Source: Dictyostelium discoideum
Lineage: Eukaryota
Direction: 5' to 3'
Assembly (NCBI GenBank): GCA_000004695.1
Contig: CM000151.3
Coordinates: 2,304,001-2,368,000 of the forward strand
Length of the DNA: 64,000 bases
The translations under genes and the position numbers were made by a program. Below are positions 16,298-17,350 of this stretch, piece after piece (positions within the stretch are counted from its first letter, which is position 1; each line of letters starts with the position of its first letter). The notes below the pieces were generated by a model that saw only the letters and a program-made list of their open reading frames with translations, ran no database searches and had not been told where the DNA came from.

Positions 16298-16584
16298 CAT
16301 ATTATTATTTATATTATTTATATTACTATCAGATTTAGGATCATAACTTAATTTTTCTTCTAAATTTTTAATAAATTGAACTATTTGTTTTATAACCCCA
16401 TTGTTTTTGTAATTTCTTTCAATGTATTTGTATTTGTATTTATTGGTGTATTTGTTTCCATGATTAAATTTAAAAGTGGTATAAATACATCGATTCTATC
16501 GGTATTTAACAAATATTTCTAAAATTTGGTTATAAATATCTTGAGTATAAAATAATGGTGGATCTTGTAATAATTGTGTATATT

Positions 16585-16839
16585 TATTTTGATTGTGAAT
16601 TTGAAATTACATGTAGTATTTTTTTAAATATGTAACATTCATTTTCTTAAAGCATTGAGCTAATTCATTAAAATTAAAACCATTTGGAAATGTTTTTCAA
16701 TTACCATTTTATAAAATTAATAAAGAAATTAATCAACTACACCTTGATATTCATTTTTAATTCTAACATCTTGATAATATTCTGTGAACATTTAAATCTT
16801 AATTCTACTCTTGGTTTACTTTATCTAATTGGTGTTGTC

Positions 16840-16856
<17 letters not shown>
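16585..16856 (-). pseudogene. decayed chimeric pseudogene: copine exon-1 start (MTTPI...) fused to an internal fragment of the ADF-H/cofilin-like gene
   Basis: The minus strand reads ATG ACA ACA CCA ATT AGA TAA, a stop at codon 7 (copine has AGT TTA here). Downstream cofilin-derived codons carry several stops and frameshifts ([19 protein letters not shown]). Confidence 0.55.

Positions 16857-16923
<67 letters not shown>
16843..16923. repeat. (TTTA)n tetranucleotide repeat followed by (TA)n
   Basis: Read directly. It is inserted between the duplicated copine exon-1 and promoter fragments, where the original locus has no repeat. Confidence 0.9.
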
Positions 16924-17350
16924 TATATATATATATATTTTTAATAAAAAACCAAAATTTAATAAACAAAAAACAAAAAAAAAAATAATAATAATAATGA
17001 GGATGGTTTTTTTTTTGTTCGCCAATCACCAAAAAATGTCATAAGAAAAGTCTTAAAAACTAAAAATAAAATAAATAAAAAAATAAAAAAAAAAAAAAAT
17101 TTTTCTGCAAACATAATGTTGTGTAATTACTGGGCTCTTTAATTTTTTTCGAGCTATTTGCATGCCTTATCCCAATAAGGATGAAGATCGTTGTCTTTCA
17201 TTTTTTTAATTAATTAAAAAAATAAAAAAAAGAATAAAAAAATTTAAAAAACTAAAAATAGAAAATGAAAAAAAAAAAAAAAAAAAAAAAGTTTATGCGT
17301 ATTATATTTTTAGTTTTTATTTTTTTTTTTTTTTTTTTTTAATTATTAAT

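Follow-up and report, generated by a model that had tools for sequence, protein, structure and literature searches.

Genes and features at the locus

The window (the whole stretch of 64,000 nucleotides analysed here) belongs to chromosome 2 of Dictyostelium discoideum AX4. Its proteins could be identified as AX4 Cofilin-2, Cofilin-3 and DDB_G0272877, and its copine as Copine-B, the product of cpnB. Between cpnB and a gene for a LUD-domain protein, in DNA of extreme AT-richness, lies a mosaic element (16290-17217, read on the minus strand) that joins parts of cpnB, of the cofilin-2 gene cofC and of a third, degenerate gene (psi). The features are collected in Table 1. The two identified parents, cpnB and cofC, are both intact at their own loci, and the ADF-H domain of cofC spans residues 18-137.

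Table 1. Features of the mosaic, of the adjoining insert and of their parents (positions are those of the window)
Feature	Position	Strand	Evidence or remark
Cofilin-2 gene (cofC, COF2_DICDI)	gene 6809-7240; source segment 6988-7191	-	Pfam Cofilin_ADF, E = 5e-25
Inverted copy of part of the mosaic	10297-10600	+	cofC 21-mer 10297-10317, block 3 10319-10493, then (AAT)n
Functional cpnB gene	ATG 12520, stop 10701	-	Copine-B, Q86K21
Copy A: cpnB promoter and exon 1 nt 1-59	12462-12851	-	joined to functional cpnB; aligns with D. citrinum L007 6911-6335
Insert part without match	12852-13268		no match in window or loci L004-L009
Relocated segment with intact 558-aa DDB_G0272877	13269-15630 (CDS 13791-15467)	+	82% identical to D. 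citrinum L004 5187-7487
Rest of psi, to former C-terminus	15640-16193	-	stops and frameshifts (frame analysis, three lineages)
(ATT)45.7 repeat inside psi	16194-16329		(AAT)n on minus strand, poly-Asn type; TRF
Block 3, continuation of psi	16290-16435	-	colinear with segment X against the 1114-aa ORF; in all four lineages; 77% identical to 10319-10493, z = 24
Segment X, start of psi	16436-16585	-	related to residues ~696-735 of the 1114-aa ORF at 42702-46046
cofC fragment, nt 59-253 (codons 20-84)	16586-16782	-	82% identical to 7182-6988, z = 43
Micro-inversion 2 in cofC fragment	16611-16633		flanked by ATGT...ACAT
Micro-inversion 1 in cofC fragment	16708-16734		matches reverse complement of cofC 7135-7109
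cpnB exon 1 copy, nt 1-59	16783-16841	-	87% identical to 12520-12462
(TTAT)24 microsatellite	16841-16936		(TAAA)n on minus strand, directly upstream of ATG; TRF
Copy B, cpnB upstream region	16842-17217	-	aligns with 12851-12521 at 72-78%, z = 34

An earlier note on this DNA had described the element as stitched from three sources within the window, and the similarity blocks that it named are real. BLASTN with low-complexity masking recovered both the cpnB promoter (17007-17216 vs 12634-12854, 78%, E = 2e-39) and cpnB exon 1 (16783-16876 vs 12462-12553, 87%, E = 5e-27), while BLASTN and pairwise alignment gave 82% identity to cofilin-2 coding sequence (16586-16792 vs 6988-7191) and 76-77% for the inverted match of block 3 (16300-16435 vs 10482-10319). 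Against 200 dinucleotide shuffles, the local-alignment scores corresponded to z values of 34 (promoter), 25 (exon 1), 43 (cofC) and 24 (block 3). With z = 24-43 for all four blocks, low-complexity noise can be excluded, so that the similarities pass the check that had been proposed for them. The mosaic was also found in three further independent assemblies, which excludes an assembly artefact. A separate BLAST match, 16840-16998 vs 7240-7415, is partly just A/T-run similarity.

As for the sources themselves, the joining of cpnB, cofC and block 3 stands, but 150 bp (16436-16585) come from none of the three. Cofilin-3 was rejected as the origin of the cofilin-like part, to which it aligns with 70% identity vs 82% for cofilin-2. 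The element is not recent, as had been supposed; the supposed divergence of ~10-15%, however, was measured at 13-18% for exon 1 and cofC and at 22-28% for the promoter and block 3, gaps counted.

The cpnB-derived stub

Copy B contains the conserved motif ...AATAGCTCGAAAAA.ATTAAAGA.CCAGTAATT.CACAACATTATGTTT and adjoins the 3' end of the LUD-domain gene. This is the ancestral position. The gene order in D. citrinum, D. dimigraforme and D. firmibasis is PCO_ADO, LUD, cpnB, g250, cofD, cofC, FNIP, with a LUD-cpnB gap of just 442-660 bp, and these three outgroups have one cpnB 5' end and one cofC apiece and nothing of the mosaic structure. Positions 16783-17800 of the window are colinear with the single cpnB promoter and the LUD gene of D. 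citrinum (L007 6740-5646), and 12300-12838 align to the same D. citrinum segment (L007 6911-6335). About 390 bp of the cpnB 5' end are therefore present on both sides of the intervening DNA (12462-12851 and 16783-17217). The promoter had been thought to have moved to a new place; since copy B is in the ancestral position, directly beside the LUD-domain gene as in the three outgroups, it is the half of a ~390-bp host duplication that was left behind, not a transported promoter.

The copine-derived coding part of the stub starts with an ATG at 16841-16839 and amounts to 59 nt (19 codons plus 2 nt), not to the 5 codons first counted. Its seventh codon (16823-16821) has changed from TTA to TAA in AX4 and in the other three assemblies, so the stop reported at codon 7 is indeed there. 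The microsatellite upstream of the ATG had been interpreted as a (TTTA)n array newly inserted between exon and promoter. It is instead an in-place expansion of TAAATTAATA, with unit counts that vary by lineage (AX4, 24 TTAT units; L002, about 17; L003, about 4; functional cpnB copy, 1-2).

The junction with cofC

Downstream of cpnB nt 1-59, an extra G (16782) precedes the cofC fragment, which begins at nt 59, and the junction TTCACA/G/AATATTATC is identical in AX4, L001, L002 and L003. The copine codons had been described as lying in frame with cofilin-derived codons. The junction has 2 nt too many for this in all four lineages, none of which has a continuous ORF across it. A stop follows about 14 codons downstream, and a further TAA, common to all lineages, stands exactly where the cofC fragment meets the next segment. 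cpnB nt 1-58 followed by cofC nt 59 onward would be in frame, and removing 2 nt at the junction restores an ORF of the form cpnB(1-19)::cofC(20-84); even this in-frame product would have about 88 aa and only half of the ADF-H domain (residues 20-84).

Around the junction, cpnB nt 49-59 (AAATGTTCACA) and cofC nt 49-60 (GAATGTCAACAA) share AATGT and ACA in the same codon phase. The microhomology is imperfect, with 8 of 11 bases matching and 1-2 extra nt in place of a clean join. This inspection covers one of five junctions, no parent having been found for two of the segments. For the G or GA at the junction there are two other possible derivations: cpnB ...AAAGAAT could have lost 6 bp, or cofC ...CACCAGAAT could have undergone two deletions, of 1 bp and of 9 bp. 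Both were set aside, as they need extra events and are indistinguishable from the simple reading.

Two short stretches of the cofC fragment match the cofilin-2 gene better in reverse orientation. For micro-inversion 1, the reverse-complement score was 19 vs 3 forward (BLAST, 96.6% over 29 bp), and for micro-inversion 2 it was 10 vs -3. Both occur only in AX4 and L001; the forward orientation of the first is kept in L003, and that of the second in L002 and L003. Owing to these inversions of ~25 bp each, the apparent divergence of the cofC fragment is inflated.

The intervening DNA

The DNA between the two copies of the cpnB 5' end (16782-12852, ~3.9 kb) contains, in minus-strand order, 197 bp of cofC, ~950 bp of psi, 2.4 kb with DDB_G0272877 and 415 bp of unmatched DNA. 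psi is truncated at its 5' side and comes from the 3' portion of a gene that has the 1114-aa ORF as a distant relative. Segment X matches 44801-44919 (BLASTN, 68% over 121 bp) and is linked to the ORF also by tblastn (E = 4e-6) and by hhalign (57 columns with 47% identity, E = 4e-8, probability 95%), and SDASIYSISHFAPIILEQYQKKNPNFYP within psi corresponds to residues 1059-1089. Among 5.8 billion proteins, a profile built on the psi peptides of three lineages revealed no intact close parent; its sole match, ACTFIR_012746, is a gene call on the same locus in L003. Gene callers disagree over psi, with models of 115, 139 and 180 aa, and no gene with a single GT-AG intron across 15727-16164 reproduced the 115-aa model of L001.

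The ortholog of DDB_G0272877 lies elsewhere in D. citrinum, D. dimigraforme and D. firmibasis, within a cluster of paralogs. The corresponding D. discoideum cluster, on another contig, keeps only a 350-bp remnant (L010 6677-7025, 89.7% identical to 14956-15304 of the window). The presence of this remnant at the expected position suggests that DDB_G0272877 was copied, in a copy-and-paste manner. The divergence of the remnant, about 10%, is similar to that between the cofC fragment and cofC (distance 0.09-0.12). The templates are thus in different states today: cofC is intact at its source, DDB_G0272877 is represented by the remnant, and for psi no parent was found. psi is absent beside the DDB_G0272877 orthologs of the three outgroups and from the D. 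discoideum source cluster, meaning that it did not travel with DDB_G0272877. Neither 12855-13268 nor 15468-15730 matched anything else in the window or any of the loci L004-L009.

The inverted copy at 10.3 kb, first taken for an intergenic source of block 3, turned out to be a derivative of the mosaic in the AX4 lineage. It lacks ~214 bp of the mosaic (16648-16436), so that a cofC 21-mer with one mismatch (0.00 expected by chance) abuts block 3 directly. The copy is found in AX4 and L001 only, whose orthologs of this site in L002, L003 and D. citrinum are without it, and it is closest to the AX4 version of the mosaic (distance 0.123 vs 0.18). Its restriction to one lineage, the abutting 21-mer and the fact that block 3 is internal to the longer psi in the mosaic identify it as derived rather than as a source. 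Separate insertions are also present nearby; that of AX4 spans 9571-10627, and L003 carries another, different insertion at this site.

Distribution and decay

The lineages compared were AX4, L001, L002 (D. cf. discoideum) and L003, that is, three diverged lineages in four assemblies. The whole structure, including the identical cpnB/cofC junction, is present in all of them. The search in relatives that the earlier note had suggested therefore found the mosaic complete in the four assemblies of the D. discoideum complex and absent from the three outgroups. By this distribution of sequences, the insertion took place in the ancestor shared by the complex, once D. citrinum had branched off.

Each lineage carries lesions of its own. 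L002 has lost ~200 bp of the promoter and 35 bp of cofC, L003 lacks 11 bp of exon 1, and the AX4 lineage has the two micro-inversions. Between AX4 and L003, copy B has diverged about 2.4 times faster than copy A (0.101 vs 0.042). The stem branch is short, the consensus of the mosaic differing hardly at all from ancestral cofC. There is no apparent purifying selection on the fused ORF, given a nonsense codon common to the lineages, deletions or inversions peculiar to each and the fast divergence of copy B.

The mosaic had been regarded as broken, and we also find it apparently non-functional today, with its TAA at codon 7, out-of-frame junction and lineage-specific lesions. The stub appears to have no function, because these defects, together with the TAA at the end of cofC and the faster divergence of copy B, all point the same way. 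It seems to have been inactivated by the time the sampled lineages diverged, and it was most likely dead from birth.

Origin of the mosaic

What remains at 16290-17217 is the decaying scar of a rearrangement. We consider it probable that it represents a decayed cpnB promoter with a 19-codon leftover, stranded by a composite insertion of ~3.9 kb into the start of cpnB. A composite of apparently copied DNA was inserted at nt 59 of exon 1, and a ~390-bp host copy is present on each side. The distal copy (12462-12851) keeps cpnB intact; the proximal one, still beside the LUD-domain gene, became a stub fused to the cofC fragment. The stub then acquired the microsatellite expansion, deletions and two micro-inversions, and part of the mosaic was later recopied, in inverted orientation, to 10297-10600 in the AX4 lineage.

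The insertion may have taken place in one template-switching event of the MMBIR/FoSTeS type. In MMBIR, template switching occurs at microhomology and yields templated insertions (PMC8421209), and a 'cycle of templated insertions' has been described as 2-7 copied templates strung together, returning to the host and re-replicating a host segment (PMC7025897). At the cpnB locus, a string of copied segments from distinct loci does sit at one host site, and a host segment of ~390 bp is present again around it. Such a cycle would leave cpnB at the imperfect (8/11) microhomology with cofC and return ~390 bp behind the point of departure. We propose only tentatively that the whole insert (12852-16782) and the ~390-bp duplication arose from one germline cycle that combined four or more templates drawn from three or more loci, including one on another chromosome-scale contig, and that this cycle relocated DDB_G0272877 and became fixed in the complex.

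The same structure could have been assembled stepwise, through a ~6 kb tandem duplication (cpnB promoter to mid-cofC), a 5.3-kb microhomology-mediated deletion (cpnB nt 59 to cofC nt 59) and later insertions of psi and DDB_G0272877. In favor of this, the cofC fragment has kept the parental strand and order, which an origin by deletion would demand; an imperfect microhomology is present at the junction; and other separate insertions have entered the neighbourhood (the one at 9571-10627 in AX4 and its unlike counterpart in L003). However, at least four independent events would all have to become fixed after D. citrinum had split off and before the complex radiated, and no intermediate state (a duplication without insert, or a partial insert) was found among the four assemblies. 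In addition, the cofC fragment and the DDB_G0272877 remnant are similarly diverged, by about 10%. We regard a stepwise origin as unlikely.

In the model that goes back to the earlier note, the cpnB promoter and first exon were brought onto a cofC fragment, creating a chimeric cpnB::cofC gene, expressed and working for a time, that later decayed. A promoter and a 5' exon are indeed joined to sense-strand cofC: promoter, ATG, 19 cpnB codons and cofC codons follow one another in the right order and orientation, and the observed junction is just 2 nt off an in-frame union of cpnB nt 1-58 with cofC nt 59. Against this, the frame break at the junction and the codon-7 TAA are common to three diverged lineages despite the short stem branch; with the TAA at the cofC end, the best product would be ~88 aa, with residues 20-84 of a domain spanning 18-137; different deletions or inversions have accumulated in each lineage; and the promoter is unmoved. 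A short functional in-frame phase of cpnB::cofC may have existed, but there is no positive evidence for a gene created and then lost, as the out-of-frame junction and both TAAs are common to all lineages, and we find this history improbable.

The D. discoideum genome is rich in mobile elements, which would favor capture by a transposable element or retroposition of a processed chimeric transcript, as would the fact that psi is 5'-truncated and includes the former 3' end of its gene. Nevertheless, the mosaic cannot easily be a processed pseudogene, as it holds ~330 bp of non-transcribed cpnB upstream DNA and an internal piece of cofC, and the flanking duplication of ~390 bp far exceeds the target-site duplication of a transposon. 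No repeat family was found at the ends of the insert, and no tRNA gene within 8000-19000, so a tRNA-targeted retroelement (TRE) was not involved; an origin of this kind is accordingly very improbable. Chance similarity between AT-rich low-complexity sequences, or an artefact of assembly, has a negligible probability: whatever the AT-richness of the region and the A/T-run match of 16840-16998 to 7240-7415 might suggest, it is refuted by the z values of 24-43, the 21-mer expectation of 0.00 and the presence of the mosaic in three further assemblies.

Relation to known systems and significance

The mosaic is a known kind of feature, not a new kind of biological system. With templated-insertion cycles (PMC7025897; PMC8421209) it shares the stringing of segments from several loci at one host site, the return of the string to the host with re-replication of a short segment (here ~390 bp), the mixture of direct and inverted segments and perhaps also the microhomology, which is imperfect at the one readable junction. 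Unlike those cycles, the insert is germline, fixed in a natural protist lineage and old (about 10% divergence); its DDB_G0272877 template has since been nearly lost, amounting to a net relocation of the gene, and it may have formed in a single event or in several successive ones.

The mosaic also resembles unprocessed, duplicated pseudogenes, in that cpnB and cofC are intact whereas the partial copies of cpnB, cofC and the third gene have nonsense codons and frameshifts, contain deletions and micro-inversions and change more quickly than their parents; it differs from them because three relics are fused into one mosaic bordering a larger insertion. DDB_G0272877, present at a new locus with a 350-bp remnant at the ancestral one, recalls gene relocation by duplication and loss, except that here the relocation is coupled to a duplication of the host site and to co-inserted fragments of unrelated genes.

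Drosophila jingwei and Sdic are reportedly chimeric genes formed by recruitment of a promoter or 5' exon. In cpnB/cofC, too, a promoter and first coding exon are joined to coding sequence that belongs to another gene and runs in their own direction. Unlike those genes, however, cpnB/cofC, known here from sequence alone, has no ORF across the junction in any lineage, contains half a domain, has an unmoved promoter and displays no sign of constraint. A survey of the literature on Dictyostelium copine pseudogenes yielded nothing relevant.

The locus offers a datable example of a complex insertion that relocated one gene, spared the host gene by duplicating its 5' end and left a chimeric-looking relic; such relics are easily taken for dead fusion genes. 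The insert also explains why ab initio gene models over 15.7-16.6 kb vary from one Dictyostelium assembly to another (115, 139 and 180 aa), and argues that these are pseudogene over-predictions. Furthermore, the functional cpnB of D. discoideum retains only about 330 bp of ancestral upstream DNA, which is relevant to cpnB promoter and knock-in constructs. If the insert did arise in one cycle, it would represent a natural evolutionary case of a class of rearrangement known chiefly from cancer genomes. It would also show one way in which a protist can relocate a gene and gain raw material for fusion genes.

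Genes and Similarity Blocks

Exact protein look-ups in AX4 identified three of the genes in the table below and returned two DDB_G numbers per protein, as expected for a locus in the duplicated part of AX4 chromosome 2. Pfam detected Cofilin_ADF in both cofilins, and Copine and C2 in 10701-11825; the spliced copine gene (introns 12447-12327 and 12084-11979; ATG at 12520) is exactly Copine-B (cpnB; Q86K21). On the minus strand, ATGACAACACCAA (MTTP) opens both cpnB (12508-12520) and cofilin-3 (8046-8058), and AATGT lies at nt 50-54 of both cpnB and cofilin-2 (cofC), TGT being codon 18. 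These shared motifs are probably coincidental.

Features of the cpnB-cofC region (window positions)
Feature	Position	Strand	Basis or remark
Cofilin-2 (COF2_DICDI, DDB_G0272568/DDB_G0274059)	6809-7240	-	exact protein look-up, AX4
Cofilin-3	7642-8058	-	exact protein look-up, AX4
DDB_G0272877	13791-15467	+	exact protein look-up, AX4
Mosaic: cpnB upstream DNA	17217-16842	-	sequence match
Mosaic: (TAAA)n run; TRF: (TTAT)24	16936-16841	-	TRF
Mosaic: cpnB exon 1, ATG + 59 nt	16841-16783	-	sequence match
Mosaic: single G	16782	-	between cpnB and cofC parts
Mosaic: cofC nt 59-253	16781-16586	-	sequence match
Mosaic: 150 bp matching none of the sources first proposed	16585-16436	-	part of psi
Mosaic: block 3, matching 10319-10493 (+)	16435-16290	-	sequence match; (AAT)n run next
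Insert: cofC fragment	16781-16586	-	first component
Insert: psi, degenerate gene fragment	16585 to ~15640	-	takes in the unexplained 150 bp, block 3 and (AAT)n run
Insert: segment with intact DDB_G0272877	13269-15630	+ (opposite orientation)	82% identical to D. citrinum ortholog region
Insert: 415-bp component	12852-13268		last part

The similarity blocks of the mosaic reported in the earlier note are genuine. Masked BLASTN gave E = 2e-39 for the cpnB promoter, 5e-27 for cpnB exon 1 and 3e-30 for the 10.3-kb block, together with a strong cofC match; against 200 dinucleotide shuffles, the promoter, exon 1, cofC and 10.3-kb blocks scored z = 34, 25, 43 and 24, with identities of 72-78, 87, 82 and 77%, respectively. 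Within the long cofC match, the pairing of 16840-16998 with 7240-7415 reflected A/T-run similarity only and was disregarded. The search in relatives that the same note had proposed recovered the mosaic in three other assemblies of the D. discoideum complex, meaning that it is not an artefact: another strain, 99% identical (L001), D. cf. discoideum (L002) and a diverged D. discoideum strain (L003).

The Locus in Related Species

Loci were fetched via orthologs of DDB_G0272877 and Cofilin-3, the syntenic outgroups being D. citrinum (L007), D. dimigraforme (L008) and D. firmibasis (L009). In each, PCO_ADO is followed by the LUD-domain gene, cpnB, a 236-272-aa gene, cofilin-3 and cofilin-2. An FNIP-repeat gene comes next in D. 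citrinum and in D. firmibasis; the gene in this place in D. dimigraforme had no Pfam match. A single cpnB 5' end and a single cofC occur in every outgroup, with LUD and cpnB just 442-660 bp apart.

AX4 16783-17800, comprising the decayed cpnB 5' end (the stub), its promoter and the LUD gene, is colinear with L007 6740-5646, while the functional cpnB 5' end (12300-12838) aligns to the overlapping L007 6911-6335. Since two AX4 regions thus correspond to one D. citrinum segment, ~390 bp of ancestral cpnB 5' DNA is now doubled around an insert of ~3.9 kb (16782-12852) that is confined to the D. discoideum complex. The promoter had been thought to be carried to the fusion; by the D. citrinum alignment, the copy in the mosaic is the one that stayed beside LUD.

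The direction of copying at 10.3 kb is likewise the reverse of that first proposed, in which 10321-10460 was an intergenic source. Positions 10297-10317 are a cofC 21-mer (one mismatch; 0.00 expected by chance) directly abutting block 3, in the order and orientation of the mosaic, so that the 10.3-kb element is colinear with the mosaic, less ~214 bp. Block 3 of the mosaic is internal to the longer psi fragment and present in four of four lineages; the 10.3-kb copy occurs in AX4 and L001 only, and was not at the orthologous site in L002, L003 or D. citrinum. Of the mosaic copies it is nearest to that of AX4 (distance 0.123 vs 0.176-0.183), and it keeps a 19-bp stretch since lost there, so it was copied before the AX4-lineage mosaic reached its present state.

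In AX4, 10297-10600 (+) and 16190-16669 (-) together make up an imperfect inverted repeat whose ~300-480-bp arms both terminate in a long (AAT)n run. Between the arms lies a 5.6-kb interval with cpnB and DDB_G0272877, for which the repeat could serve as an inversion substrate.

Coding Capacity of the Stub

The fusion was described as five cpnB codons joined in frame to cofC. The cpnB-derived coding part is in fact 19 codons, and the join as it stands (cpnB nt 1-59, G, cofC nt 59 onward) is out of frame; a hypothetical join of cpnB nt 1-58 to cofC nt 59 onward would read in frame. The junction TTCACA-G-AATATTATC is exactly identical in AX4, L001, L002 and L003. All four also share the stop at codon 7 (TTA to TAA), as first noted, and a TAA (AAA TAA) precisely where the cofC sequence ends.

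The mosaic-copy consensus is nearly identical to ancestral cofC and shares several retained ancestral states with D. citrinum. Little time therefore passed between formation and lineage split, yet the disabling features were already there. Decay then took separate forms: L002 lost ~200 bp of the promoter and, separately, 35 bp; L003 lost 11 bp of exon 1 and gained a local duplication; and AX4 acquired two micro-inversions. Between AX4 and L003 the stub copy has diverged faster than the functional one (0.101 vs 0.042). Even the best-case product, ~88 aa, would hold residues 20-84 only of an ADF-H domain spanning 18-137.

Most likely, then, the stub was dead at birth. A brief open-frame phase is possible, because removal of 2 nt would restore the frame. 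In layout the mosaic resembles a promoter-capture fusion gene, as first proposed, but it lacks the open frame and the conservation that would define one.

The (TAAA)n run upstream of the stub ATG (16841-16936) has 24 units in AX4, ~17 in L002 and ~4 in L003 by alignment, where functional cpnB has merely TAAATTAATA. The micro-inversions (~25 bp each; 16708-16734 and 16611-16633), inside the cofC-derived segment, lie between short inverted repeats (TTT...AAA and ATGT...ACAT) and are confined to the AX4/L001 lineage, L003 keeping the parental orientation.

Contents of the Insert

Conceptual psi peptides are common to three lineages, but interrupted by stops and frameshifts. They match, at two colinear places, an uninterrupted 1114-aa ORF (42702-46046, +): residues 696-752 (hhalign probability 95%, E 4e-8, 47% identity; 68% over 121 bp of DNA) and 1059-1089. 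The C-terminal third of this ORF is the only detectable relative of psi; against 5.8 billion proteins, the psi profile matched solely a gene predicted at the L003 counterpart of this locus, with no direct parent. The ORF has no Pfam domain; as its exact sequence was not found in the protein collection, it presumably departs from the annotated model. Gene calls over psi conflict (115, 139 and 180 aa; window 15727-16164, L002 11911-12875, L003 12020-12836), have no Pfam match and are probably over-predictions on a pseudogene.

The DDB_G0272877 ortholog lies within a paralog cluster elsewhere in all three outgroups. At the expected position in the D. discoideum cluster (L010 6677-7025) there is a 350-bp remnant alone, 89.7% identical to 14956-15304. 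This cluster, around DDB_G0270088, holds a second decayed family fragment (L010 2467-3178; 84% identical to the window gene). Both occupy places where D. firmibasis keeps intact genes, so the family underwent turnover by relocation and loss. The 415-bp component had no match in the window or loci L004-L009.

Mechanism of Formation

The mosaic combines unprocessed pseudogene fragments and marks the boundary of a complex insertion by which a gene was relocated. This is a well-known kind of feature; our literature search found no published description of this one. The insert would consist of segments copied in a string from several loci, some of them in inverted orientation, and flanked by a short host segment that was re-replicated. 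We infer that this architecture fits the definition of a 'cycle of templated insertions', a class ascribed to replication-based template switching (PMC7025897) such as MMBIR (PMC8421209).

At the sole readable junction, cpnB nt 49-59 (AAATGTTCACA) and cofC nt 49-60 (GAATGTCAACAA) share AATGT and ACA in the same codon phase, the common AATGT providing microhomology, and 1-2 extra nucleotides are present. The cofC fragment and the DDB_G0272877 remnant have each diverged ~10% from their partners, which is compatible with one event. Possibly, the locus arose stepwise instead, by tandem duplication of the cpnB-to-cofC block, internal deletion and later insertions; none of the assemblies compared had an intermediate haplotype that would decide between the two. 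That a single germline cycle was fixed in a natural protist lineage is a tentative proposal, which we rate as rather doubtful. Transposon capture or retroposition is unlikely, given the included promoter DNA, the ~390 bp flanking duplication and the failure to find a tRNA gene in 8000-19000 or repeat ends.

A second lineage-variable insertion lies at the cpnB 3' end (window 9571-10627; L002 5734-6342; L003 6410-6830). AX4 and L002 carry there an ORF of tandem Cys-rich repeats (9660-10145 in AX4; no Pfam match), L003 has different DNA and D. citrinum nothing. The AX4 insert is flanked by a doubled cpnB 3' piece (9453-9587 matching 10622-10738, core TATTTTATTTTRATCTAYGACTCATTGG). Both ends of cpnB look like insertion hotspots with host-segment duplication.
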